A stretch of DNA of 56,177 bases, taken from Rickettsiales bacterium (GTDB taxonomy: Bacteria; Pseudomonadota; Alphaproteobacteria; Rickettsiales; UBA1997). Below the pieces are notes generated by a model that saw only the letters and a list, made by a program, of their open reading frames with translations, was not told the DNA's origin and searched no databases. This document shows, piece by piece, positions 1 to 38,312 of this stretch (its first letter is position 1; each line of letters starts with the position of its first letter). Made by a program: the position numbers and the translations under genes. Location: positions 1-56,177 of the forward strand of contig JAQTXT010000001.1 of assembly GCA_028688645.1 (NCBI GenBank), written 5' to 3'.

Positions 1-23
1 ATATTGTTAAATTTTTAGACTTG

Positions 24-40
24 ACAACTACATCTAGTTA
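24..40 (+). promoter_or_regulatory. Candidate NrdR-box-like palindrome overlapping a TTGACA hexamer upstream of nrdD
   Basis: TTGACA lies at 21-26. It is followed by CTACATCTAG (28-37), which has symmetric arms aacta/tagtt. This matches about 8 of 10 core positions of the published NrdR-box consensus (CwAtATaTwG). No convincing second box was seen. Confidence 0.25.
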
Positions 41-78: not shown

Positions 79-2316
79 ATGGAAAATAATGTTATAAATA
101 ATGTTTTGTTTTTAAAGCCAGATACAAAAAACAGACTTTCAAAATCTTTTAAAGATGCGAAAGAAGGTTCCATTTCTGACTTTTTAAATAATCTTTCAAA
201 AAATAGTTTAAAATTAATCTCTGGTAATGAAGAAGATATAATAAAACAGGAATTAATTAATCAAAAACTTTTTAAAGTTTATAAAGAATATATACGAGAA
301 GAAATTGAAAGCGAATATGAAACAAAAGAAGAACAAAGAGATACAAAAGTTAGTTCAAAGCACTCAGTTCAAGAATATATAGATAAACAAGACTGGAGAA
401 TTAACGCTAATGCAAATACTGGTTATAGTAATGCTGGTATGATTAATAATCTTTCTGGAAAATTAATCGCAAACTATTGGTTAGATAATATCTTCTCAAA
501 AGAAGAAGGTGAATCTCATAGAATTGGAGATTATCATATTCATGATTTAGATTGTTTAACAGCTTATTGTGCTGGTTGGTCTTTAAGAGCTCTACTTGAT
601 GAAGGATTTAACGGAGTTAAAGGTAGAGTTTCTGCACAAGCACCTAAACACTTTAGAAGTGCTTTAGGACAAATGGCAAACTTTTTAGGTATTTTGCAGT
701 CAGAATGGGCTGGAGCACAAGCTTTTAGTAGTTTTGATACTTATTTGGCACCTTATGTATTTTTAGATAATTTAACACCAAAAGAAATAAAAAGAGCTAT
801 TGCTAGTTTTGTATACAATTTAAATGTTCCTGCAAGGTGGGGACAATCTCCTTTTACAAATGTAACAATGGATTTTACAGTTCCAACAGATTTAAAAGAT
901 CAATTTCCAACTAGAGAAGGACAACATTTATTCAAAGGTCTTGGAGAAGGAAATTTATTTGGAGAAGATAATCTATTAGAAAAAGCAAGAGAGAGGGGTG
1001 TAGAAAACTTAGAGGAATTAACGTATAAACATTTCCAAAAAGAACTTGAAATGATTGATGTTGCATATTATGAGGTAATGACAGAAGGCGATAATGAAGG
1101 TCAACCTTTTACTTTTCCTATCCCAACAGTTAACATAACAGAAGACTTTAAATGGGATACACCAGCCGCTGATGCATTATTTGAAAATACAGCAAAAATA
1201 GGTAGCTCATATTTCCAAAATTTCCTTGGAAGTCAATACATGAAAGATAAAGATGGAAATTTAGTTCCTAATCCAGATGCTTATAAACCAGGTGCCGTTA
1301 GAAGCATGTGCTGTCGTCTTCAATTAGATTTAAGAGAACTTTTGAGAAGAGGAAATGGATTATTTGGATCAGCAGAAATGACTGGTTCTATTGGTGTTGT
1401 AACACTTAATATGGCAAGACTTGGTTATAGGTTTAAAGGTTATTCTGACGGTATTGCAAGAATTGGCGACAAACAAGGCATGCTAAAAGAAATCGGTAGA
1501 TTAATGGATTTAGCAAAATCAACCCTTGAAAAAAGGAGGATTTTCGTCCAAGAACTTTATGAAAGAGGCTTTTATCCATACACTAAAAGATATTTAAAAC
1601 ATTTTAGAAATCATTTCTCAACTATCGGAATAAATGGTATGAATGAAATGATAAGAAATTTCACTGATGATAGTTATGATATTAGCGATTCAAAGGGTAT
1701 AGTCTTAGCTACAGAAATTCTTGAATTCATGAGAAGTAAATTGAAAGAATATCAAAATGAAACTGGAAATTTATATAACTTAGAAGCAACGCCAGCTGAA
1801 GGAACTACTTATAGATTTGCTAAAGAGGATAGAAAGAGGTATCCAAACATAATTCAAGCAGGAACTTATCCAAACATCTATTATACAAATAGCAGTCAGT
1901 TGCCTTCAAATTATACAGATGATCCATTTACAGCTTTGACTTTGCAAAATGATTTACAAAGTAAATATACAGGAGGAACAGTATTGCATTTATATATGAG
2001 TGAGAGAATTAGTAGTGGTGAAGCATGTAAAAGATTTGTAAGAACTGTTTTGGGTAATTATAAGATGCCATATATCACAATAACTCCTGTATTCTCAACA
2101 TGTTCTGAGCATGGTTATTTAAATGGCGAACAAAAAACTTGCCCAATATGTGGAGAACCAACACAGGTATGGACTAGAGTTATGGGATACCACAGACCAG
2201 TTGACCAATTTAATGTTGGAAAACAAGGTGAACATAATGAAAGATTATTCTTCAAGGAAGACACAGAAGAAATCTGTGCTTATGAAAAGAAAATCAAAAA
2301 AACAACAGCTTGTTAA
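79..2316 (+). CDS. nrdD: Anaerobic (class III) ribonucleoside-triphosphate reductase
   Basis: 745 aa. The C-terminal Zn-ribbon reads CSEHGY..CPICG. It is followed by the glycyl-radical motif TRVMGYHRPV..NVGKQGE. The core has class III RNR length and similarity. No ATP-cone motif was recognised at the N-terminus. Confidence 0.93.
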   Translation: MENNVINNVLFLKPDTKNRLSKSFKDAKEGSISDFLNNLSKNSLKLISGNEEDIIKQELINQKLFKVYKEYIREEIESEYETKEEQRDTKVSSKHSVQEYIDKQDWRINANANTGYSNAGMINNLSGKLIANYWLDNIFSKEEGESHRIGDYHIHDLDCLTAYCAGWSLRALLDEGFNGVKGRVSAQAPKHFRSALGQMANFLGILQSEWAGAQAFSSFDTYLAPYVFLDNLTPKEIKRAIASFVYNLNVPARWGQSPFTNVTMDFTVPTDLKDQFPTREGQHLFKGLGEGNLFGEDNLLEKARERGVENLEELTYKHFQKELEMIDVAYYEVMTEGDNEGQPFTFPIPTVNITEDFKWDTPAADALFENTAKIGSSYFQNFLGSQYMKDKDGNLVPNPDAYKPGAVRSMCCRLQLDLRELLRRGNGLFGSAEMTGSIGVVTLNMARLGYRFKGYSDGIARIGDKQGMLKEIGRLMDLAKSTLEKRRIFVQELYERGFYPYTKRYLKHFRNHFSTIGINGMNEMIRNFTDDSYDISDSKGIVLATEILEFMRSKLKEYQNETGNLYNLEATPAEGTTYRFAKEDRKRYPNIIQAGTYPNIYYTNSSQLPSNYTDDPFTALTLQNDLQSKYTGGTVLHLYMSERISSGEACKRFVRTVLGNYKMPYITITPVFSTCSEHGYLNGEQKTCPICGEPTQVWTRVMGYHRPVDQFNVGKQGEHNERLFFKEDTEEICAYEKKIKKTTAC

Positions 2317-2345
2317 GTAGTAAATTAACTGTTAAAATAAAAAAT

Positions 2346-2378
2346 AAACCTTTTGATAAAATCAAGAGGTTTATTTTT
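2346..2378 (+). terminator. Rho-independent terminator after nrdD
   Basis: Hairpin aaaccttttg / caagaggttt, followed by a T-rich tract, about 30 nt after the nrdD stop. Confidence 0.6.
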
Positions 2379-2410
2379 AATTATAACTTAACTTTTAATA
2401 AATTTGATAA

Positions 2411-2566
2411 TAGACCTGTTGCATAAATAATTTTTCCACAAAAAATAATTTATACAAAAAAAGATGAGGATATTTCAAAATTTTTGTGGAAAATATTATA
2501 AAACTTCCAATAACTCAGATGTCTTTTTCCATTGAAAAATTTCAAATTATTTATGCAACAGGTCTA
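2411..2566. mobile_element. MITE-like palindromic element, copy A (156 bp)
   Basis: The terminal inverted repeats tagacctgttgcataaataattt and aaattatttatgcaacaggtcta are present. There is an internal inverted pair ttttccacaaaaa / tttttgtggaaaa. A near-identical copy lies at 6876-7110. Both ends are TA. Confidence 0.75.
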
Positions 2567-2620
2567 ATATTTATAATTTTTCACATTTTAGTTAGAACAT
2601 AAAAAAATTCGCTTATACAG

Positions 2621-3040: not shown

Positions 3041-6000
3041 TTATTTTAAATCAATCTTATCAATTTTGCCAAAACTTGTCCATAAAATATAACATTCAAC
3101 AATCTTATTTGAATAAATTTTCTCAATTAATATTTTATATAATCCTAATTGTTTTTTATATTTTTCAGGAACTTTCGTTGGCAAATAATTTGTATTTTTA
3201 TAGTCAATTATAAATATTTTATCATTAGTAATTGTCAATCTATCAATCTGCCCAGAAATAATATCTTTTCCAATATTTCCAAAAATTGGAACTTCTGCTT
3301 TAGAATTTTCTCCAAACAAATATTGAAATTCTTTATTATTTAAAACATTAAAAACAATCTCTTTTATTTCATTTTTATAATGAGAATCTTTTAAATATAT
3401 GTCAGCTATTTTATCTCGTTCACTATCTTTAACTTCTGGCAAAATTTCTAGTAATTTATGAACCAATTTTCCTTTTTGGATATTATCAGAATTTTCATGT
3501 GGTTTTACTATCACATTTTCAGCATAATATAATGAGGGATTAATTATTTTACTCTCTTCCTTTTGAGTTTTTGATTGAGATATAGTCAAAATTATTGAAC
3601 CAATATTTTCTTGATTTTCCATTTTTTTAATATTGATTTTAGCTGTTTTATCAAATTTATCCTCATCACCAATGTATAAAATATTCTCTTCAAAATTTTC
3701 ACTTTTTCTATTTTTTGCACCAATATTTATTATAGATTGTTTCAAAATTTCATACCAACAATTTTCTTTTGCTTCTTGTTGTCCCCTTCCATAATCGCAA
3801 ATATAAAGCTCATTTTCCGCCCTAGTAATTGCAACATAAAGAAGTCTTAAATATTCTTCTTCAGCTTCACTTTGCATTTGTTCTTTTATGGTATTTTCTG
3901 TAAAATTTGTTTTCTCTTTAACTAATATCGGCAGTTTAAAATCATAGCCTTCAATTTTGTGATTTAAAATACTACTTGTCTTCTGTATTTTACCTTTTGT
4001 ATGATTAGTGTCTGCTAAAATAATTATTGGGCTTTCCATACCTTTTGATGAATGAACTGTTATTATTTTAATTTCGTCAGTTGATAAATCTATATCCCTT
4101 TTTATTTCAAGATCACTATTTTCTAAAAATTCGATAAATCCTAATAATGTAGCATCATTATGATTTTTTTCATAATCGTTAACTAAATTTAAAATTTCGT
4201 TCAAAACTTCATCAGCTAAATATACAAATCTTTCTTTAAAATTCTTTCTAATATTTTTAGTTTCAAAGACATAAAATAGAAATTCATAAGGGGTTAAAAT
4301 TTGTACCTTTTCTATTAAATCATTTAAAAAATCACAATTTGAAAAAGCAATCCATAAACTGCAATTATTTTCATTTTTGTATTTACATAATTTATATAAA
4401 TCATCTTCAGACATATTGAGAATTGGTGATTTTATTATATTAGCCAAACTCAAGTCGTCTTCATTAAACAAAACAAATTTACACAAAGAGATAATATCTT
4501 GAGAAATAATATTTTCAGATAGATTAAATCTATCATTTCCCATCGTTGGAATATTGTATTTACTAAATTGTCTTATCAAATAATTGATAAAATCTTTATC
4601 TCTATTTTTAATCAAAATCATTATATCAGAGTATCTTAAAGGACGAAAACACTTATCTTTTCTTGAAAAAATTATTTTGCCATTTTTAAACCAACTATTG
4701 ACTTCTTTGGCTATAATTTCAGCAAGTTTCTGTTTATTTGTAGGTTCTATATTCTCAGGATAATTAATCTCCCAATTCGGTAGTTCTTCATTTTTCTCTT
4801 GTTTTGTTGTTTTATCTCCAATCAACGGCCATATTTCAACCTTTCCAACGCCATCTTGCCTCACAATATTATGTTTTATCGTATCCTGTAATTTTGAAAT
4901 TGCATTTTTTCTTGATGGTTCTTTAAATACTTCGTCTGCAACACTAAGTATCGACTTTAAAGATCTAAATGAAGTTTCCAAATAAATATTTTCAAATTTT
5001 TTACCACAATTCTCTATTTTTTGCTTATAATCCTCTAAAATAATATGAAAGTTATTAGGATCAGCACCTTGAAAACTAAATATTGATTGTTTTTCATCAC
5101 CAACTACAAAAATTGTTCTATTTTCATTTTCTTTATATCCATAGCCCGCAAAAAACTCTTCTGTAATTGATTTTACAATATCCCATTGAATCGGACTTGT
5201 ATCTTGCGCTTCATCAATTAAAAGATGGTCTATGCCCTCATCTAACTTATAGTTTATCCAATTTGAATATGGATTTTCACCATTCAAATTTTTATATCTT
5301 GAATCGTTTAAAAGTCTGTCAGTTTCAAAAATCAAATCGCTATAATCAAGGTATCCTGCATCTTTTTTTAAAGCAGTATAAATGTCAAAGATGCAATAAA
5401 CCAATCTTAAAAAATGCGCAGTAAATTCAAAGTTGATTAAATTATTTCGCCTTTCTACGAATTCAAAAACTCTCCGCCCTTCCCTTTCAACGAAATCAGC
5501 AAGTTGAGGAAAATTTTCCACTATATTTTTTGTTATTATTTTTCCTTCAGCTTTTATCTCATTTTTTTGTGTTAAAAATAAATAAATGTATTTAGTTAGA
5601 TCAAATTTATTTTTAAAAAAACTAATAAATTTTAAATCTGTTACCTTACCAGAACTTTCAACACTGTCAAGTAAATCGTCATTTAAAATAGAAAGATCCA
5701 AGTTCTCTAAAAATTCATTTTCAATACTTTCACTATTTTCTTCAAACTCCAAATCGAAACTTTTTTTTATTTCATTAATCACACCGTCAGTCGTAAAAAA
5801 TTTACTTTTTAAATAAAGTAAATTATCTTTTTGACCCATCGCCTGCTTCAATAAAGCAACGAATTGTTCTTCATTTTCATAAGTAAAAATATATTCAATA
5901 GATCGTTTAACCTCTGAATTATCTATTTTTAACAGTTCATCTTTCGCTTGTAATAATAATTCACTTGATATAACTTCATCTGCAATTTGAAAATTAGGTA

Positions 6001-6469
6001 TAATATTTGCTTCAAGAGGAAATCTTTTTATAATTTGCTGGCAAAATGAATGAATTGTTAAAATCTTAAAATCATTACTATAATCAAGAATTTTTGCAAA
6101 AAGTGTTCTAGCTATTTTTGTTTTTTCTTTAATATTTGTATAATCGCCATCTAATTCAAATATCTCCTTTTCTAATTTTTCATCATTAAGAGTAGTCCAT
6201 TCTGCTAATTTTGCATTAATTCTATTTCTCATTTCAGCAGCACCAGTATTTGTGAATGTAATACACAAAATTTTTGAAGGTTGAATTCCCGATAAAAGCA
6301 TTCTTAGTAATCTTTTCACCAAAACAGTAGTCTTCCCTGAGCCAGCAGAAGCACTTGTCCAGATTGAATAATCAGGATTTGAGGCTATATTTTGTTTTTT
6401 TTTAACTTCTTCCATCATAACAAAATATATTATAATAATATTTTTAATATGTAAGTTAATTTTTTTCAT
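3041..6469 (-). CDS. addA: Double-strand break repair helicase-nuclease AddA (UvrD-like helicase + PD-(D/E)xK nuclease)
   Basis: Walker A is ASAGSGKTTVL. UvrD-family helicase motifs are present (IDEAQDTSP, VGDEKQSIFSFQGA, VAITRA). The C-terminal nuclease motif is GQIDRL..IIDYKNT. The true start may be the internal MMEEV at about 6418. Confidence 0.85.
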   Translation of the reverse strand: MKKINLHIKNIIIIYFVMMEEVKKKQNIASNPDYSIWTSASAGSGKTTVLVKRLLRMLLSGIQPSKILCITFTNTGAAEMRNRINAKLAEWTTLNDEKLEKEIFELDGDYTNIKEKTKIARTLFAKILDYSNDFKILTIHSFCQQIIKRFPLEANIIPNFQIADEVISSELLLQAKDELLKIDNSEVKRSIEYIFTYENEEQFVALLKQAMGQKDNLLYLKSKFFTTDGVINEIKKSFDLEFEENSESIENEFLENLDLSILNDDLLDSVESSGKVTDLKFISFFKNKFDLTKYIYLFLTQKNEIKAEGKIITKNIVENFPQLADFVEREGRRVFEFVERRNNLINFEFTAHFLRLVYCIFDIYTALKKDAGYLDYSDLIFETDRLLNDSRYKNLNGENPYSNWINYKLDEGIDHLLIDEAQDTSPIQWDIVKSITEEFFAGYGYKENENRTIFVVGDEKQSIFSFQGADPNNFHIILEDYKQKIENCGKKFENIYLETSFRSLKSILSVADEVFKEPSRKNAISKLQDTIKHNIVRQDGVGKVEIWPLIGDKTTKQEKNEELPNWEINYPENIEPTNKQKLAEIIAKEVNSWFKNGKIIFSRKDKCFRPLRYSDIMILIKNRDKDFINYLIRQFSKYNIPTMGNDRFNLSENIISQDIISLCKFVLFNEDDLSLANIIKSPILNMSEDDLYKLCKYKNENNCSLWIAFSNCDFLNDLIEKVQILTPYEFLFYVFETKNIRKNFKERFVYLADEVLNEILNLVNDYEKNHNDATLLGFIEFLENSDLEIKRDIDLSTDEIKIITVHSSKGMESPIIILADTNHTKGKIQKTSSILNHKIEGYDFKLPILVKEKTNFTENTIKEQMQSEAEEEYLRLLYVAITRAENELYICDYGRGQQEAKENCWYEILKQSIINIGAKNRKSENFEENILYIGDEDKFDKTAKINIKKMENQENIGSIILTISQSKTQKEESKIINPSLYYAENVIVKPHENSDNIQKGKLVHKLLEILPEVKDSERDKIADIYLKDSHYKNEIKEIVFNVLNNKEFQYLFGENSKAEVPIFGNIGKDIISGQIDRLTITNDKIFIIDYKNTNYLPTKVPEKYKKQLGLYKILIEKIYSNKIVECYILWTSFGKIDKIDLK

Positions 6470-6824: not shown

Positions 6825-6875
6825 GCATCTTAAAAATAAAGAAAACAATTAAATTACCAAATTAATTTTTTTAAT

Positions 6876-7110
6876 TAGACCTATTGCATAAATAATTTTT
6901 CCACAAAAAATAATTTATACAAAAAAAGACGAAGATATTTCAAAATTGTTAGCAGAAACAGTATACTTATATATTTCGTTGTTAAAAATTTTGAAATTCT
7001 GAAGGATTTTGAAGTAGAAATTAAATTTTTGTGGAAAATATTATAAAACTTCCCATACTCAGATGTCTTTTTTCCATTGAAAAATTTCAAATTATTATGC
7101 AACAGGTCTA
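6876..7110. mobile_element. MITE-like palindromic element, copy B (235 bp, carries a nested insertion of about 78 bp)
   Basis: It has the same termini and internal blocks as 2411-2566 and the same orientation. An extra segment at about 6948-7025 carries its own inverted copy of atttcaaaat. The 73-aa ORF at 6881-7102 (-) lies wholly inside the element and is judged spurious. Confidence 0.75.
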
Positions 7111-7117
7111 TTATCGT

Positions 7118-8860
7118 TTATAATCTTTCTTTTTCCTTGTTAGCCTCAGTTTCTTCTCTTCTTCTTTTTATTTTTGGTTCTATACTTGTTGTTTCTACAA
7201 TCTTCATATCATCAGATTTTTGACGCATTAAAGCTTCCCCTACTCTTGTTCTAACTAAACCTCTAGTTTCTTGTCGATATTCACTTATAGAGCCAATTTG
7301 TGGAGATGGGGCAATAAATTTTGGAACTTTAATAACTCGTTTTATAATCGGAAGAATTTTTTCAGGCATTATTGTAAAATCATCTCCAGGCAATATAAGC
7401 GAAAATCTACTATCAATTTCATGTAATTTTTTAAAAATAACGGGTAAATTTGCTTCATCACTTATTTTTTTTAGTTCATCTATAAATATTCTTCTATTTT
7501 CTTTCGTACCCAGCCTTTTTCTTATGTTAGGACACATACTAATTAAAAAATCTATTATATACTTATCTTTAGGATTAACCATAATAGCATTTCTCGTTTG
7601 TGCAGCAAGACGCTCAAAATAACATGCTTGCAAGGCTATATAATATTGCCCATTAAATATTTCACTTTTTGGATTTATACAATGAGGAAAACCTATTTCA
7701 TCTCCCAATAATCCAAAAGCCATATGAAGTGGAAGAGGTTTTTTTAAATTTTGCGCAATTAAATGAAGAGCATAAAAACTAACCTTTGTTCCCTCATTAT
7801 TTATGTCATCCCACATTGCTTGTAAAATTTCAATAGGGATATTTGGATTTTGTACAAGCCCGCAAACAACATTAGGATTAATCATCATTTTATTATTCCA
7901 TATAGCTTGTAAAATTTCAACAGGAGTACTTGAATTTTTTATAAGTTGTTCAATAAATTCTAAATTATCTCTTATGTTTTTCACATTTATCTCATTCCAC
8001 ATTGCTTGTAAAATTTCAATAGGGATATTTGGATTTTGTGCAAGTCTAAAGATAATAACAGATCTAACTCCTTTTTCTTTTGTATTTTTCTCACCCCATA
8101 TCATCTGTAAAATTTTAACAGGAGTATTCAGATTTTTAGCAATTTCACATAAAACAGCAGAATTAACTTTTGTCCCTTCTGTATTTCTTTCATCCCACAT
8201 TGCTTGTAAAATATTAACAGGAGTTTTTGTATTTCCAGCAATTTCACATAAAACAGCAGAATTAACTTTTGTCCCTTCTGTATTTTTTTCATCCCACATT
8301 GCTTGTAAAATATCTATAGGAGTATTTGGATTTCCAGCAATTTTACATAAAACAGCAGAATCAACCTTTGTTCCTTCTTTATTTCTTTCATCCCACATTG
8401 CTTGCAAAATATTAATAGGAATATTCTTATTATGCGCAAGCCCATAAATAACATGAGAATCAACCTTTGTTCCTTCTGTATTTCTTTCATCCCACATTGC
8501 TTGTAAAATATCTATAGGGGTATTTGGATTTCTAGCAATTTCACATAAAACATCAAAATTAACCTTTGTTCCTTCTGTATTTCTTTCATCCCACATTGCT
8601 TGTAAAATATCTATAGGGGTATTTGGATTTCTAGCAAAATAACACAAAGTGCTAAGAAATATAACTTTTCTTTTATTTTCTTCAATCCAAATTTCTCTCA
8701 AAACTTCAGTAGGAGTATTCTGATTTATTATAAGTAAAATTAAAATATCGTGATTAAGTTTTTCATTTTTCCACATTGCCCTCAATATTCTAGGAGGAGT
8801 GTACGCATCTCTAGCTAGGACTTCGAATGAAAATCTTTTATATAACAAATCAATATCCAT
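7118..8860 (-). CDS. Tandem-repeat protein (eleven 33-aa NPNTPxxILQAMW repeats) with an unknown C-terminal domain
   Basis: 580 aa. The repeat unit is ..NPNTPIDILQAMWDERNTEGTKVxSAVLCEIA.. and is reminiscent of leucine-rich-repeat-variant / HEAT-like helical repeats. The last 200 aa or so are unrelated to the repeats. Confidence 0.85.
   Translation of the reverse strand: MDIDLLYKRFSFEVLARDAYTPPRILRAMWKNEKLNHDILILLIINQNTPTEVLREIWIEENKRKVIFLSTLCYFARNPNTPIDILQAMWDERNTEGTKVNFDVLCEIARNPNTPIDILQAMWDERNTEGTKVDSHVIYGLAHNKNIPINILQAMWDERNKEGTKVDSAVLCKIAGNPNTPIDILQAMWDEKNTEGTKVNSAVLCEIAGNTKTPVNILQAMWDERNTEGTKVNSAVLCEIAKNLNTPVKILQMIWGEKNTKEKGVRSVIIFRLAQNPNIPIEILQAMWNEINVKNIRDNLEFIEQLIKNSSTPVEILQAIWNNKMMINPNVVCGLVQNPNIPIEILQAMWDDINNEGTKVSFYALHLIAQNLKKPLPLHMAFGLLGDEIGFPHCINPKSEIFNGQYYIALQACYFERLAAQTRNAIMVNPKDKYIIDFLISMCPNIRKRLGTKENRRIFIDELKKISDEANLPVIFKKLHEIDSRFSLILPGDDFTIMPEKILPIIKRVIKVPKFIAPSPQIGSISEYRQETRGLVRTRVGEALMRQKSDDMKIVETTSIEPKIKRRREETEANKEKERL
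7745..8815 (-). repeat. 99-bp in-frame tandem repeat array (about 11 units; near-identical core about 8132-8635)
   Basis: The string cctttgttccttctgtatttctttcatcccacattgcttgtaaaatatctataggggtatttggatttctagcaa recurs exactly 99 bp apart, for example at 8464 and 8563. Confidence 0.9.
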
Positions 8861-13945: not shown

Positions 13946-15747
13946 TTACAAATTATCTTTCGCTTTTTCTCTTAGTTTGATATGTAACTCTCTTAATTGT
14001 ATTTCATCAACATTATTTGGAGCATTCATCATTAAGTCTTCACCTTTACCATTAGTTGGGAAAGCTGTAACTTCTCTCAAATTTTCTTCATCAAGCAAAA
14101 GCATTACAACTCTATCAATGCCAGGAGCACAACCAGCATGAGGAGGAGCACCAAATTTAAATGCATTAATCATACCACCAAATTTATCTTCAACAGCTTC
14201 TTTTGAATAACCAACTTTCTTAAATACTTCATACATTAGTTCAACTTTGTTATTTCTAACACCACCACTTGCCAATTCAAAACCATTACATACTATATCA
14301 TATTGATAAGCAGAAATATCTAGAGGATTTGGAGTATTTAAAATAGCTTCCAAACCACCTTGTGGCATTGAGAATGGATTGTGCATAAATCTAAAGCACC
14401 TGTTTCCTCATTCATTTCAAAGAACGGAAAATCAATAATCCAACAGAATGCATAAGCTTCTTTATCAATCAATCCCAATTCGTTTCCAAGCTTAGTTCTA
14501 ACTTTTCCAGCCAATTTTGATGCTTCTAAAAGCAAGCCACAAGAGAAGAAAATTGAATCTCCATCTTCTAATTTAGCAATTTTCTTTAATTCAATTAATC
14601 TCTCGGCACTTAAAAACTTTGCAACAGGTCCTTTAGCTTCGCCCTCTTTAGTCCAAGTAATATAGCCCAAACCTTTAGCACCCTCTTCAATCGCATAAGC
14701 AACCATTTTATCAAAGAAACTTCTAGGCTTTTCACTTGTATTTTTAGCAGGAATACCCCTAACAACAACTTTACTATTGCTTTCAATAGCTTTTGCAAAA
14801 ATTCCAAAATCAGAACCTCTGAACACACTTGTTGTATCAACAATTTCAATATGATTTCTTAAGTCAGGTTTATCACAACCATATTTTAACATCGAATCCC
14901 AATATTTGATTCTAGGAAATGGTGCGTTTGTAATTTTTCTTTCAGGTTTAAAATTTTTAAATGTATTATACATAACTGGTTCCATAACAGCCCAAACATC
15001 CTCTTGCTCCACAAAAGACATTTCCATATCTAATTGATAAAAATAAAGCAATCTATCAGCTCTTGTTCCCTCATCTCTAAAACAAGGTGCAATTTGGAAA
15101 TACTTATCAAAGCCACTAATCATCAATAACTGTTTAAATTGTTGAGGAGCTTGAGGCAAAGCATAAAACTTTCCAGGGAAATTTCTACTAGGAACTAAAA
15201 AATCTCTAGCACCCTCTGGAGAAGATGAAGTTAAAATTGGAGTCTGAAATTCCAAAAAGTCCTGTTTAATCATCTCATTTCGCATGAATTCAATTACTTT
15301 AGATCTCATTTGAACATTTCTATGCATTCTTTTAGTTCTCAAATCAAGAAATCTATATTTCAACCTTAAATCTTCTGGATAATTTTGAGTCTCATCAGCT
15401 ATTTGAAATGGTATTTGTTCTGCCCTACTTTCAATTTCTAATTTGTCCAATTCAACCTCAATTTCACCTGTTGGCAAATTAGGATTTTTTGTTTCATTAC
15501 TTCTTGCAACAACTTTTCCCTCAACTAAAATTACACTTTCAAGTGTTATTTTTGAGGCTAAATCTACAAGATTTTTATCTTTCTCTATATCAATTATACA
15601 CTGAGTAATTCCATAATTATCTCTTAAATCTATAAATAATAAGCTTCCATGGTCCCTAATTGAATGTACCCAACCACTAAGCTTAACTTGGCTTCCAACA
15701 TTAGAAGCTCTTAATTCGCAACACGTATGTGTTCTATATTTTGTCAT
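13946..15747 (-). pseudogene. aspS: Aspartate--tRNA ligase interrupted by a single-base frameshift (two ORFs: 14338-15747 and 13946-14386)
   Basis: The N-terminal ORF has the OB-fold and class II motifs (FRDEG.RADR). The C-terminal ORF starts at [11 protein letters not shown] and carries ..GGVRNN.. and [14 protein letters not shown]. The frames join at gatttatgcac (rc of about 14381-14391), where one extra T would restore ..GALDFMHNPF.. Confidence 0.85.
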
Positions 15748-29262: not shown

Positions 29263-29361
29263 TCCAACAAACAGTTATAATATCTTGTTAAATACTATGA
29301 ATTTATTTTTTTTAATCAAGATATTTAATTGACAAATAAAAGCGAATAATTAACAATTGAT

Positions 29362-29540
29362 TTGCCCGTATGGGCAGCGGCATAAGAAACCGAATAAAGC
29401 TTTTAAAACCTCTCTTTTGTTTTTATAACATAAAGCGGAGGCTTATAGTTATAATGAGTTGTTTACAACTCAAAAGGCTGTAAGGGCTGAGCTTTATCAG
29501 TTTTCTTAACCTCCGCACTTTATTTTAAAGTGCGATTTTT
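29362..29540 (+). ncRNA. Structured leader or sRNA candidate, copy 1 (ends in a terminator-like hairpin just upstream of a small ORF)
   Basis: - Possible promoter: TTGACA at 29329-29334 and AACAAT at 29351-29356.
- Hairpin TGCCC-GTAT-GGGCA, 29362-29375.
- GCGGAGG (29434-29440) pairs with CCTCCGC (29509-29515). This stem encloses hairpin GAGTTG-TTTA-CAACTC (29455-29470) and a conserved block at 29472-29501.
- CGCACTTT / AAAGTGCG + ATTTTTA, 29513-29540.
- GC is visibly higher than in the flanks, and a homologous copy lies at 34247-34431 (-). Confidence 0.5.
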
Positions 29541-29564
29541 ATTAATAATAAAAAAGGTAAAGAA

Positions 29565-29873
29565 ATGATGACAGAAAAACTAAAAGAACCTAACAAACAA
29601 CTAAACGAAAAAATAGAAAAGAAAAAAGATGATATTAGTGTAAAAGATGAAATAGAACTAATTGAAAGAAAAATATTAAAAGAAGAATTAATTCAACTTG
29701 AAATAAAAGCTATTAAATATTATGTGAATAATAATCTTAACAATAGATGTGATTTAATGAATTTGTATAAATTATCAAAGTATATACGAGGAACTCATAA
29801 GAAAAATAAATCAAATAAAACTATGATTGAAAGAGTTGAAAATTTGTTAGAAAGTGTAGCGAAGAAAAACTAA
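29565..29873 (+). CDS. Small lysine-rich hypothetical protein (paralog of 33921-34226)
   Basis: 102 aa. A purine-rich aaaaaggtaaagaa sequence precedes the ATG. It shares a segment with the other small ORF: I.KYYVNNNL.N..DLMNLYKLSKYI against IVMYFVANKLKSNDDIIRLREITDYMI. Both are preceded by the same structured RNA. Confidence 0.6.
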   Translation: MMTEKLKEPNKQLNEKIEKKKDDISVKDEIELIERKILKEELIQLEIKAIKYYVNNNLNNRCDLMNLYKLSKYIRGTHKKNKSNKTMIERVENLLESVAKKN

Positions 29874-29877
29874 CAAT

Positions 29878-30093
29878 TTGTAGCTCCCCTTTGCCCTTCG
29901 GGCATTTCCCCTCAAGGAGAGGAAAGATATTCTGGCTTGTTGAACTATCTTTTCTTAATCACTACTCGTAATCTTTCCCCTCCTTGAGAGCAAGCACAAA
30001 GCCGAACCGATAGCCGCTTGCAGACAATCGGCAGCTTGTCGTTCGGCAAAGTGCGACGGTGTCAAATGCCCGAAGGGCAAAGGGGAGCTACAA
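29878..30093. repeat. Relatively GC-rich 216-bp element bounded by perfect 30-bp inverted repeats (candidate structured RNA or palindromic mobile element)
   Basis: - Outer arms: ttgtagctcccctttgcccttcgggcattt (29878-29907) is the exact reverse complement of 30064-30093.
- Inner 18-bp stem: 29911-29928 with 29971-29988 (one mismatch).
- Third stem: gccgaac (30001-30007) with gttcggc (30041-30047).
- GC is clearly above local background. Confidence 0.85.
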
Positions 30094-30142
30094 CAAAATC
30101 TTAAATAAATACAAATAAGATTAAATATTCTAAATAACATAT

Positions 30143-30175
30143 AAAAAACCACCAGAAAATTAATCTAGTGGTTTT
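30143..30175 (-). terminator. Terminator hairpin downstream of the 30187-30720 gene
   Basis: Minus-strand aaaaccactag..ctggtggtttttt, a stem followed by a U-tract. Confidence 0.55.
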
Positions 30176-30186
30176 AAACTTAAAAT

Positions 30187-30720
30187 TTATTTTGATTTTA
30201 TAAGATTATCGATTTTCTTCTCAAGTTCATCAATTTTTTTAATGAGTTTTTCAATATCAGCCGAACTATTTCCACCAACCAAACCAGATAAAGAAAATTT
30301 AGCAACTTTTCTGTAGCTTTTCCAAACAAAAAATAACATCATTAATATTATAAATATAAATAAACCAGAGAAAATTATTGCATACATTATTATTTTATTC
30401 TTTAGTACAATAAGATTGTTGAACTCACTTTCTGCTCTATTAACTAACTTTTCACTTTTATCTATAATATTATTATTAATTCTATCACTAGCTTTTTTAA
30501 TTTCGGCATCAAATTTTTCTGTTATTTTTTGAAACTCTTTATCTACTTTTTTCATTAAATCATCTTGTGCTGATTTTGTAGCATCAGTCAAAGTTTTATT
30601 TATTGTATTACTGTCAAGATTTACTTTACCATTTTGACTGATTTTAATGTAATCATCAATGCCAGCATAACATACATTAGTTAAAAATAAAAAAGTAAAA
30701 ATATAAATTAATTTTTTCAT
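30187..30720 (-). CDS. Secreted or membrane-anchored coiled-coil protein (hypothetical)
   Basis: The preferred start is MKKLIYIFTFLFLTNVCYA (signal peptide) at 30720. There is a coiled-coil middle region and a C-terminal TM (IIMYAIIFSGLFIFIILMMLFFVW). The ORF track's longer start overlaps tatD. Confidence 0.65.
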   Translation of the reverse strand: MKKLIYIFTFLFLTNVCYAGIDDYIKISQNGKVNLDSNTINKTLTDATKSAQDDLMKKVDKEFQKITEKFDAEIKKASDRINNNIIDKSEKLVNRAESEFNNLIVLKNKIIMYAIIFSGLFIFIILMMLFFVWKSYRKVAKFSLSGLVGGNSSADIEKLIKKIDELEKKIDNLIKSK

Positions 30721-33920: not shown

Positions 33921-34226
33921 TTAGTCCATTGACACTTCTTCTAAAAATGTAATGAATAATTTATTTAATTTTTCTGTTATTAAATTTAATCTTTTTAACT
34001 TTACTTTCTTATTATATTTAATTCTGCAAGTTTTAATCATATAATCAGTTATTTCTCTTAATCTAATTATATCATCATTGCTTTTTAGTTTATTGGCAAC
34101 AAAATACATAACTATTTCTTTTTTAACTTTAAACATTTTCAAATTTATTGATTGATTTTCATCTAATTTTTCTTGGAGAATTTTATTTCTGTCCAATTTT
34201 TTTACTTTTTCAATCAGTTCTTCCAT
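33921..34226 (-). CDS. Small lysine-rich hypothetical protein (paralog of 29565-29873)
   Basis: 101 aa. aaaaaagaggtaaaaa precedes the ATG (minus strand). It has the same upstream structured RNA as the 29565 ORF. Confidence 0.6.
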   Translation of the reverse strand: MEELIEKVKKLDRNKILQEKLDENQSINLKMFKVKKEIVMYFVANKLKSNDDIIRLREITDYMIKTCRIKYNKKVKLKRLNLITEKLNKLFITFLEEVSMD

Positions 34227-37142: not shown

Positions 37143-38312
37143 CTACAAATCTAATAATTTTTTCTTCTCTTCATCACTCAAAAAATCAGCATTTGCAATT
37201 TTATTCCAATAACTTTCTTGCCTTGAAGAAAGAGCTGAAATTTTGTCTTTGTCATAATATAATTCAACATTCCCATCAAACATTGGAACTAACCAATTAT
37301 TTAAAGCCGTTAAAATATTATCAACCATTGGTAAAATTGTTTCTTCCCACATTGCCAATCTTGCCTCTGTCAAATTACTATAAGTATTATCACCTGGTAT
37401 TCCTAATAATTGAGATGGGACACCAAAAACCATTGCAATATCTCTAGCACAAGAATGTTTTGCATCTAAGAAATCCATATCCGCAGGACTTAAACTCATT
37501 TCTTTCCACTCTAAACCACCCTCTAATAACAATGGTTTGCCAGCATTTTCACTTCCAGAAAACTCTTCATTTAATTGTTTTTTTAATCTATCGAATTGTT
37601 CATCAGTTAAAAATGCGGAATTATCACCGTCACCTTTTACCATCAATGCTCCGCTTGGCTTTGCTCCATTTTGCAACATTGCCTGATTCCATTTTGAAGA
37701 TTCATTATGTTGATCTATAGCATAACTAGCAGCTTCAACAGGCGATAAACCATACCAATCATTAATTGGATTGAAATTTTTAATATGTAAAATCTCGGAT
37801 TTTCCAGTTAATTTATCCAGATAGAAAGTTGATTTTGTACTATTAACTTTATATTCATAAGCTATTGGAATACCAAAATTACCAGCTATTATACTAATTC
37901 TATCTGGTCTTAAAATGAATAATTCTTTTGGACTTTGGAAATTTTCGCTTCTTAAAAACACAGCCTTTACAAAACTATTCCCAGAAATTAATTTATAAGA
38001 ATATAATGATTCAAAAAATTCAATTCTGTTTTGTGTTGGATTTGGATTATTTAATAAATCAATTAGAGGGTGATTTTTAATTTCCTCATTAGTTTTTTTA
38101 TCATATAATAAAAACGAAATAGAACTGGCACTTCTCGCTAACATAGAAATACATTTATACCCAACAACATTTTTAATATAACCTTCTCTTGAAAACATCT
38201 CATAGTTTCTATCAGACCAAACTGCTTTTCCAAGTGGTTGATAATACGATTTAATTTCATTTATTCTTTTATCACTTTTCTTTTCTTTAAAAATATTTTT
38301 TATTATATTCAT
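37143..38312 (-). CDS. Phage portal protein, HK97 / RcGTA g3-like family (orphan)
   Basis: 389 aa. Length and motifs (..GNSF.., ..WYGLSPVEAA.., ..FGVPSQLLG..GDNTYSN..EAR..) are typical of HK97-family portals. No terminase, protease or capsid gene is adjacent. Confidence 0.8.
   Translation of the reverse strand: MNIIKNIFKEKKSDKRINEIKSYYQPLGKAVWSDRNYEMFSREGYIKNVVGYKCISMLARSASSISFLLYDKKTNEEIKNHPLIDLLNNPNPTQNRIEFFESLYSYKLISGNSFVKAVFLRSENFQSPKELFILRPDRISIIAGNFGIPIAYEYKVNSTKSTFYLDKLTGKSEILHIKNFNPINDWYGLSPVEAASYAIDQHNESSKWNQAMLQNGAKPSGALMVKGDGDNSAFLTDEQFDRLKKQLNEEFSGSENAGKPLLLEGGLEWKEMSLSPADMDFLDAKHSCARDIAMVFGVPSQLLGIPGDNTYSNLTEARLAMWEETILPMVDNILTALNNWLVPMFDGNVELYYDKDKISALSSRQESYWNKIANADFLSDEEKKKLLDL

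Follow-up and report, generated by a model that had tools for sequence, protein, structure and literature searches.

Introduction

REP doublets, REPINs and BIMEs, as described by Bertels & Rainey 2011 (PMC3116915) and Di Nocera et al. 2013 (PMC3733652), consist of two inverted hairpin-bearing units with the tag outside (a head-head dimer), separated by a spacer with stem-loops, and the entire unit folds as one long hairpin. They are extragenic, mostly just downstream of ORFs, with arms that are either identical or carry different stem versions, a mosaic composition, and (G)TAG at the outer end. In the model for these repeats, it is folded single-stranded DNA that is handled by an HUH/Y1 transposase, known as RAYT (PMC3116915, PMC3733652). 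The element described in this work, a GC-rich palindrome from an uncultured Rickettsiales lineage, was found within a 56,177-nt stretch of DNA, referred to as the window, and shares each of these structural features. It differs in having a conserved spacer of 82-156 nt, rather than the usual 20-100 nt; in a tag lying 8-9 nt from a hairpin of 5-6 bp, rather than at the foot of a 20-40-nt palindrome; in a low apparent copy number, where REPs reach tens to hundreds per genome; in that no RAYT (PF01797) gene was seen in 141 kb; and in its AT-rich Rickettsiales host, the REP families reported in Rickettsia being CGTC-tagged. Hence, of the features by which a REP or REPIN is recognised, the inverted hairpin doublet and the extragenic position after an ORF were both found, and the tag agrees only by half.

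Bacterial MITEs, including Correia/NEMIS, RUP, the Coxiella QMITEs and the Cardinium MITE (reviewed in PMC10969869), are the other close comparison. These are likewise non-coding sequences of under 300 bp with long terminal inverted repeats, present as dispersed intergenic copies, with length variants arising by internal deletion, and co-transcribed with neighbouring genes, as is probable for the element. Terminal inverted repeats, a non-coding length below about 500 bp and dispersed copies thus place the element with MITEs; against this, no parent IS is known for it, a target-site duplication is not demonstrable, and each arm has a hairpin of its own that is kept by compensatory change.

The first-pass annotation, made from the letters of this DNA alone, had suggested, as one alternative, a hairpin-ended mobile element resembling the PATEs of the IS200/IS605 family. 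This was the right kind of object, and PATEs do share subterminal hairpins, the lack of coding capacity and the lack of an obvious target duplication. However, the ends of PATEs are not inverted repeats of one another, whereas the arms of this element are exact inverted repeats, including the sequences flanking the hairpins. An IS200/IS605-type PATE was therefore rejected, and the nearest relatives are instead REP doublets, REPINs and BIMEs, or MITEs. No TnpA or TnpB was seen in 141 kb either.

Within the order itself, the Rickettsia palindromic elements RPE-1 to RPE-10 were reportedly described by Ogata et al. in 2000. These too are palindromic repeats of 100-150 nt without a known transposase (discussed in PMC3733652 and PMC3767692), but they belong to the genus Rickettsia and often lie in-frame within protein genes, whereas the copies described here are all intergenic and GC-rich; it is by description that the two are set apart. 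For one internal part of the element only, the loop of its first hairpin, there is a further analogy, though not a family relationship, in the minute hairpin-loop inversions of plastids, where related sequences carry the loop of a roughly 20-bp stem now in one orientation, now in the other, as a signature of hairpin recombination or template switching (PMC6005162, PMC9653739).

This work concludes, with a probability of about 70%, that the element is one copy of a set of dispersed, non-coding, GC-rich palindromic repeats, built as hairpin doublets of the REPIN, BIME or MITE kind, in an uncultured, AT-rich Rickettsiales lineage. Though the family is new, its kind is already known.

Results

Sequence, limits and fold of the element

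A repeat search bore out the perfect 30-bp terminal inverted repeats of the first-pass annotation, pairing the outer arms at 29878-29907 and 30064-30093 over 30 of 30 nt with 156 nt between them. This is both the best and the longest inverted repeat of the entire window, and no match to the 30-mer arm is expected in shuffled sequence. Comparing the ends of different copies set the limits of the family at TAGCTCCCC...GGGGAGCTA (29881-30090), narrower than the 29878-30093 originally proposed, and the outer TTG/CAA was therefore counted as flanking DNA. The left arm as first drawn, 29878-29907, includes three such flanking bases.

The internal structure (Table 1) also proved to be as first read. 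The inner stem with one mismatch around a 42-nt loop was recovered as hairpin 1, the arms of which (29906-29928 and 29971-29993) are 87% complementary, the single mismatch of the stem being A.C on the plus strand and G.U on the minus strand; the second hairpin, closed by GCCGAAC/GTTCGGC, was found; and both outer arms contain the self-complementary TGCCC-TTC-GGGCA. The segment is indeed richer in GC than its surroundings, at 0.49 over 200 nt against 0.20-0.30 nearby and 0.27 for the window as a whole, and its peak of 0.56 over 120 nt is the top GC island of the window. A three-way junction, which had been anticipated, is predicted for the RNA of both the plus strand (-112.3 kcal/mol, z = -12.6) and the minus strand (-122.0 kcal/mol, z = -13.7), and the element folds as DNA at -66.1 kcal/mol (z = -13.3).

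An assembly artefact is excluded, as the element was recovered letter for letter in a separate Logan assembly (L001), and a homologous copy occupies the same site in the ENA contig L013. The short-read contigs L001 and L007 both end inside the element. The element holds only short ORFs interrupted by stops, and its six-frame translation matched no known protein among 5.8 billion, nor spurious ORFs over other copies; a consensus scan found no promoter within it.

The element starts 7 nt past the stop codon of a 102-aa ORF, in a region arranged as pheT (minus strand), a promoter, leader RNA and the 102-aa ORF (plus strand), the element, a terminator, a 177-aa phasin-like gene (minus strand) and tatD (minus strand). 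The minus-strand gene does have a separate terminator, as had been noted, and since this sits beyond the repeat, the repeat lies within the transcribed 3' region between convergent genes. Given its position between stop codon and terminator, the element is itself probably transcribed. It was rejected as an intrinsic terminator, there being no T-run or U-tract after the stem on either strand. Pfam searches of window ORFs of at least 90 aa found no transposase or recombinase domain, and ARAGORN found no tRNA or tmRNA in the window.

Table 1. Features of the element and its surroundings in the window, and positions of the other copies of the repeat
Feature	Source	Position	Strand	Description
Whole palindromic repeat (full-length form)	Window	29881-30090	none	210 nt, GC 0.51; from copy alignment (window, L005, L003), arm scan and HMM search
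Left terminal arm	Window	29881-29909	+	TAG boundary, C-rich spacer CTCCCCTT, hairpin TGCCC-TTC-GGGCA (29892-29904), TTT
Right terminal arm	Window	30062-30090	-	Exact inverted copy of left arm; small hairpin 30067-30079
Hairpin 1	Window	29908-29990	none	Stems 29908-29928 and 29971-29990; 42-nt loop 29929-29970
Hairpin 2 (optional module)	Window	29991-30063	none	Arms 29994-30007 and 30041-30054, including GCCGAAC/GTTCGGC
Multi-copy module	Window	29306-29873	+	Promoter 29329-29357; leader RNA with terminator about 29362-29540; 102-aa ORF 29565-29873
Intrinsic terminator of 177-aa phasin-like gene	Window	30145-30175	-	Gene 30187-30720, minus strand; outside the repeat
Full copy	L003, MAG DATIQT01	4335-4523
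Decayed one-armed copy	L003, MAG DATIQT01	about 121-278
Short copy	L002, MAG DATIQT01	2284-2400		117 nt; arms and hairpin 1 only
Full copy	L005, JGI metagenome	1889-2102
Lone arm	L005, JGI metagenome	1117-1146		Joined to a different C-rich palindrome
Arm	L007, Logan	1-26		At extreme contig end
Short copy	L013, ENA contig	1079-1221		143 nt

Copies in related Rickettsiales

Genome contigs were scanned for the arm with an exact 22-mer, and metagenome contigs with a degenerate 22-mer, followed by blastn and HMM searches of the fetched loci. The terminal arms recur at seven further places, in five further assemblies or metagenomes of related Rickettsiales, making eight places in six assemblies with the window. 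Only one copy is present within the window, while three were detected by the exact 22-mer in the GTDB Rickettsiales MAG DATIQT01, to which both L002 and L003 belong; these counts suggest a low copy number per genome. Copies range in size from 117 to 214 nt, and share a single plan: two inverted arms of about 29 nt, each comprising TAG (GTAG in half of them), a C-rich spacer and a GC hairpin of 5-6 bp, enclose one or two interchangeable inner hairpins.

The flanking DNA differs at each locus, with no alignment between loci, and the copies adjoin recN, radical-SAM enzyme, DUF559, ftsK, topA, rdgB-like and gatA-like genes, the ends of the last two being read off translations rather than Pfam-tested. 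Without exception the copies lie between genes. At six of the seven sites the preceding stop codon is 3-45 nt away, and the seventh, in L007, is about 100 nt from the stop of topA; no copy contains a transposase gene. From this dispersal we infer that the repeat is, or was, mobile. The first-pass annotation had held that many genomic copies with target-site features would mark an ordinary MITE; dispersed copies were found, which leans the outcome towards a MITE, and the target-site features did not decide the matter.

A further metagenome match, L004, falls within a GC-rich gene for a group II intron reverse transcriptase and was put down to chance. Searching the element and leader by blastn against phages and a set of 72,556 plasmids, which was not checked for Rickettsia content, gave no match, and scans of viral contigs with two arm variants found nothing. 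These genomes also contain other small inverted-repeat families, at 2407-2570 and 6863-7129 of the window, and at 6236-6370 of L011 (with copies in L011, L012 and L002), making a mobile repeat an unsurprising reading.

Mosaic structure and arm variants

The arms are the most conserved part of the family, and hairpin 1 is kept in all intact two-armed copies, whereas hairpin 2 is absent from the short copies in L002 and L013. Among full copies, the 3' half of hairpin 2 is nearly invariant (about 90%). The loop of hairpin 1 is 42 nt long in the window, L013 and L005, where it is 95% conserved, and 21 nt in the DATIQT copies. In L005, the loop is the reverse complement of that in the window (40 of 42 positions), while the adjoining hairpin 2 has the same orientation, with 89% identity; the decayed L003 copy, read from its sequence, has the L005-type arrangement. 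Plastid hairpins are well known to flip their loops in this way, at the level of DNA (PMC6005162, PMC9653739), and the inversion argues against the hairpin-1 loop having a strand-specific role. The L005 copy also joins an L013-type left arm to a window-type right half, such that it looks like a recombinant.

The arm hairpins exist as TGCCC-TTC-GGGCA, TGTCC-TYC-GGACA and TGTCGC-TYC-GCGACA, all perfectly paired, with a mismatch in one of 11 arms. The L002 and L005 elements each combine two different versions in their arms, leaving the local hairpins intact and the arm-to-arm pairing lost at those positions; equivalent REP hetero-dimers, with two different arm versions in one element, have been described (PMC3733652). 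At the site common to the window and L013, by comparison, both arms change in concert (GCCC/GCCC in one and GTCGC/GTCGC in the other), which points to homogenisation of the arms, or to replacement by another family member. The compensatory arm variants represent only about two independent events. Palindrome-templated mutation could yield such variants without selection, and the strong conservation of the 42-nt loop and of the 3' half of hairpin 2 might reflect a function rather than a spread that is still recent.

Ends and target site

Of the 11 arms, 10 have TAG as their boundary and the other has AAG. A G precedes TAG in five of the 10 independent arms, where the frequency of G is about 0.135 (binomial P about 0.006). 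This (G)TAG is not at the foot of the hairpin, from which it is separated by CTCCCCTT, a distance of 8-9 nt. TA is found at both ends of every complete copy, save for one left end with AA, and no longer direct repeat is present. Without the element, the site in the window becomes TTGTACAA, a palindrome centred on TA. Were TA duplicated on insertion, the empty site would read ...AATTTGTACAAC..., with one TA; without duplication, it would read ...AATTTGCAAC....

No such empty site was found downstream of the 177-aa phasin-like gene in the relatives L006-L012, in which synteny at this position is not conserved, and the site is either empty of repeats or occupied by different repeat families. Alignment with the unoccupied-looking flank of L014, limited to the 27 nt after the ORF, gave scores of 24, 25 and 25, which do not discriminate. 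As TA is invariant and no empty site was found, the TA at the ends may be either a target duplication or part of the element itself.

Neither Pfam searches nor gene tables revealed a transposase of any kind in the 141 kb made up of the window and related loci, including TnpA, TnpB and RAYT. Similarly, exact-arm scans of genome, metagenome and viral contigs for a parent IS with the same ends gave only non-coding copies. We know of no report of a RAYT from this Rickettsiales group.

The adjacent leader and small-ORF module

The leader RNA of the module upstream of the element is about 180 nt long, has a terminator of its own, and is itself repeated, at 73-81% mean column identity. The module ORFs are a single fast-diverging family with 17 members in three subfamilies, barely alignable between some assemblies, and at least four members beyond the window's first ORF are present in the same MAG. 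The product of the small ORF has a four-helix AlphaFold model (pLDDT 72.6), with no Pfam or PHROG family, no PDB fold match and no visible HUH motif, and was not recognisable as a transposase. The leader RNA and small-ORF module is a more interesting object than the repeat.

The element lies directly 3' of three of the five modules with an available 3' flank (window module 1, L005 and L013), and is about 80% conserved next to modules. In L013, the short form of the element comes after a module whose ORF is 76% identical to that of the window, with the same junctions (ctaacaatttg/TAGC...GCTA/caacaaaatct). The unit common to the two extends from 29306 to about 30104 of the window, and its upstream neighbour in L013 is an rdgB-like gene, not pheT. 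In L005, the element is 43 nt after the stop of a module from another subfamily, and another arm precedes the module. As first noted, the second module of the window lacks the element, there being no second match in the window by pattern and HMM searches; nor was there any sign of the element in the 27 nt after the L014 stop. Conversely, the DATIQT and L007 copies, beside recN, radical-SAM, DUF559 and topA genes, have no module. Hence the earlier suggestion of a module-linked site is partly upheld, by the three modules that are followed by an element and by the identical junctions in L013, and partly contradicted, by the copies without a module and the module without a copy. We read the element as having probably been inserted 3' of a module and then inherited with it, with independent copies elsewhere.

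The claim that the tgccc/gggca stem also opens the leader RNA was correct. There are five TGCC-N3-6-GGCA hairpins in the window, against 0.5 expected; the arms account for two of these, and the 5' ends of the two leader RNAs for two more. From locus to locus, changes in the leader hairpin are not mirrored in the arm hairpins, and their likeness is treated here as unexplained, rather than as a demonstrated link.

Tests for a structural RNA

The first-pass annotation had found no fit to tmRNA, RNase P, 6S, SRP or tRNA, and neither Rfam nor ARAGORN provided a match. With Rfam, there was no match in the whole window at gathering scores, hence no clear match for the element, and relaxing the threshold to E <= 10 over 29300-30300 returned only miRNA-like hairpin noise. 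When the three full copies were aligned and folded with RNAalifold, none of the 75 pairs of the global fold was compensatory, and the covariation term was unfavourable (+4.11). When five copies of the neighbouring leader RNA were tested likewise, 19 of 53 pairs proved to be compensatory, which shows that this method can detect selection on RNA in this DNA.

The proposal that the GC island represents a structural RNA gene thus fell to the lack of an Rfam match, the dispersal of a repeat with optional modules, the presence of its loop in both orientations, and the absence of compensatory pairs. The data do not support a dedicated structural RNA gene; instead, the element belongs to a dispersed repeat, of which it is a single copy, and it was the comparison with other copies that reversed the inference.

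Discussion

Two types of enzyme might have moved a hairpin doublet of this kind, and the ends of the element bear on both. Recognition of the folded, single-stranded arm hairpin by a RAYT-like HUH/Y1 transposase is tentatively favoured, by a narrow margin and at less than even odds. Such a model fits better because the arms keep their own hairpins even when they have diverged, because the conserved TAG boundary is preceded by G in half of the independent arms, and because the copies show no direct repeat beyond TA. Close behind comes a DDE transposase acting on double strands and duplicating TA, an alternative retained because TA flanks every copy and because the target in the window is a TA-centred palindrome. 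In its fullest form, this alternative makes the element a classical MITE, the deletion derivative of an IS of the IS630/Tc1-mariner type, whose 30-bp terminal inverted repeats the DDE transposase would bind as double strands, with the element proper running from GCTCCCC to GGGGAGC between the two copies of a duplicated TA. The long perfect terminal inverted repeats, the TA at all but one end of the complete copies with no longer direct repeat, and the palindromic element-free site would all follow from such an origin. It is nonetheless unlikely, given that the invariant TA may be the element's own, with neither an empty site nor a discriminating L014 alignment to indicate otherwise; that an enzyme reading double strands provides no reason for a hairpin in each arm to be kept by compensatory change while the arms cease to be identical; and that the scans of genome and metagenome contigs found no IS with these ends.

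Explanations in which the element serves the module must account for both its frequent position there and its presence elsewhere. It would be a rather improbable functional RNA, acting as a 3'-UTR element or sRNA of the leader and ORF module, such as a stabiliser or regulator of the mRNA, and copied along with it. This would explain why the element begins 7 nt after the module stop in both the window and L013, with identical junctions, and lies 43 nt after it in L005, as well as the extreme stability of the fold, which is slightly better on the minus strand, where the stem mismatch is G.U-compatible. It would equally suit a hairpin-1 loop that is 95% conserved across assemblies with barely alignable module ORFs, and an arm hairpin motif that also opens the leader RNA. 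Yet module-free copies lie beside unrelated genes and may face either way with respect to the gene upstream; module 2 of the window is not followed by an element, nor is the L014 module over the 27 nt available; the conserved loop is found turned both ways with respect to hairpin 2, which is itself dispensable; and the element has neither a Rfam family, a U-tract nor the compensatory pairs evident in the neighbouring leader RNA. A recombination site marking the 3' boundary of a cassette, at which a site-specific recombinase acts on a folded single strand as at attC, is very improbable. It would account for the variable ORF between leader and palindrome, the layout being cassette-like in that unrelated or very diverged ORFs lie between a leader conserved at about 77-81% and a 3' element conserved at about 80%, with the palindrome directly after the stop codon, and with the L005 module bracketed by arms that share one hairpin variant. 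Against this, there is no integrase or recombinase in the window or examined loci; every module carries a promoter, which integron cassettes do not; the ORFs are distant homologues within one family, not unrelated cargo; and the element is found away from modules. An integron attC in particular was rejected, the ends AACTAACAATTTGTAGC and GCTACAACAAAATC fitting no RYYYAAC/GTTRRRY core site. A more speculative idea, improbable on present evidence, is that the unit of about 800 bp, comprising the promoter, covarying leader with its terminator, fast-evolving four-helix ORF and hairpin doublet, is an unrecognised small duplicative or mobile cassette of Rickettsiales. The palindrome would then be its 3' end or recognition structure, and the TGCC(C)...(G)GGCA hairpin of the leader's 5' end and of the arms a common handle for a single-strand-specific enzyme.

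For the preferred reading, that of a dispersed hairpin doublet, a mechanism can be proposed. The arms would be the conserved part recognised by a trans-acting enzyme encoded elsewhere, through which the family has spread, or may still be spreading. Thereafter, copies would change in the manner of DNA palindromes: they would recombine with one another, flip the loop of hairpin 1, lose or gain hairpin 2, and have their two arms homogenised. Inserted just 3' of a stop codon, a copy would be co-transcribed with the gene, and its stem of about -112 kcal/mol would probably serve as a 3' barrier against exonucleases, or as a stabiliser, as for REPs and BIMEs. One copy may in this way have become fixed at the 3' end of the leader and small-ORF module, and been carried along with it.

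Hence this work adds a family of REPIN- or BIME-like hairpin doublets to an anaerobic, uncultured Rickettsiales lineage, in which the repeat is found time and again just 3' of a leader RNA and small-ORF module that itself has several copies. The dynamics of palindromes are on display in these copies, in the flip-flop of a loop, the exchange of arm hairpin variants and the optional nature of an inner hairpin. In practical terms, the element breaks short-read assemblies, as the ends of L001 and L007 illustrate. More generally, the GC-rich islands of AT-rich, endosymbiont-like genomes should not be annotated by default as RNA genes.

Leader RNA and the small proteins behind it

The leader RNA is a multi-copy element of ~180 nt, well conserved with 73-81% identity between copies. 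It has a sigma-70-like promoter of its own; the RNA opens with a GC hairpin at the 5' end, continues in a core of several helices and closes with an intrinsic terminator, and a small ORF comes next. Compensatory changes were found in 19 of its 53 predicted pairs. Read from the sequence, a GCGGAGG segment could pair with a CCUCCGC segment that overlaps the terminator stem, an apparently riboswitch- or attenuator-like layout. Comparison with Rfam assigned the leader RNA to no family, returning only sub-threshold matches to trpB and GcvB. In L014, a related contig, a tandem pair of leader RNA copies (1960-2440) lies upstream of one small ORF, and a run of N breaks the first of the two.

This leader was always upstream of the ORFs encoding the small-protein family, of which 17 members were found. 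These proteins are fast-evolving, 88-138 aa in length, and fall into three subfamilies, with at least five copies present within the single MAG of the window. Their predicted fold consists of four helices (pLDDT 72.6), and searches of Pfam, PHROG and PDB gave no relative.

Inverted-repeat families

Two further repeat families accompany the GC-rich, palindromic 216-bp element. The first is AT-rich, with a 27-nt terminal repeat (ATAATAGACCTGTTGCATAAATAATTT) that is 96% complementary between arms separated by 110 nt; it occurs twice in the window, and related elements lie on other Rickettsiales contigs. The other consists of hairpin doublets (CTGCAGGAAGGGGTTTGTAACCCCTTCCTCA ... TGAGGAATGGGTTACAAACCCATTCCTGCAG), in which the hairpins differ between the two arms while each is internally compensated, as is again seen in the 216-bp family. 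In L011, a contig from a relative, one doublet lies downstream from the phasin-like gene, on the side of that gene which the 216-bp element faces in the window.

Coordinates of leader RNA copies, small-protein genes and repeat families
Feature	Location	Strand
Leader RNA	window 29355-29545	+
Leader RNA	window 34435-34245	-
Leader RNA	L005 (JGI metagenome) 525-676 and 1197-1427	
Leader RNA	L013 (ENA) 520-746	
Leader RNA	L014 1991-2118 and 2227-2439	
Small-protein ORF	window 29565-29873	+
Small-protein ORF	window 33921-34226	-
Small-protein family members	P0011-P0026	
Second family, AT-rich inverted repeats	window 2407-2570 and 6863-7129	
Second family, AT-rich inverted repeats	L008 35-201; L010 about 5890-6030	
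Third family, hairpin doublets	L011 6236-6370 (also 265-399)	
Third family, hairpin doublets	L012 2128-2273; L002 (MAG DATIQT01) 3956-4047	

The metagenomic contig L005 additionally carries a C-rich region (740-1146) of tandem CCCCTGTCAAG-type repeats, containing a perfect 54-bp inverted repeat (883-936 / 1047-1100) around an AT-rich loop of 110 nt. At the end of this region stands a single arm of the 216-bp family, and of the leader RNAs on either side of the region one is truncated and the other complete.

Two independent short-read contigs from Logan break off within the 216-bp element: L001 ends in the hairpin-1 loop (window about 29932), and L007 starts in an arm hairpin. Such ends would be the expected assembly-graph effect of a repeat, or of a loop-orientation polymorphism.

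Other genes of the window and lineage

Two overlapping minus-strand ORFs, of 146 aa (window 13946-14386) and 469 aa (14338-15747), make up a split aspartyl-tRNA synthetase gene, and both match PF00152; the split reflects a frameshift, a pseudogene or an error in sequencing. A gene for a phage portal protein (37143-38312, minus strand; PF04860, E = 2e-81), beside which Pfam scans recognised no further phage gene, may be left over from a gene-transfer agent or prophage. The window also encodes an anaerobic ribonucleotide reductase (NrdD; 79-2316, plus strand), and a close relative carries a [FeFe]-hydrogenase-like gene (L008 9073-10395). Jointly, these two genes suggest that this Rickettsiales lineage lives anaerobically.
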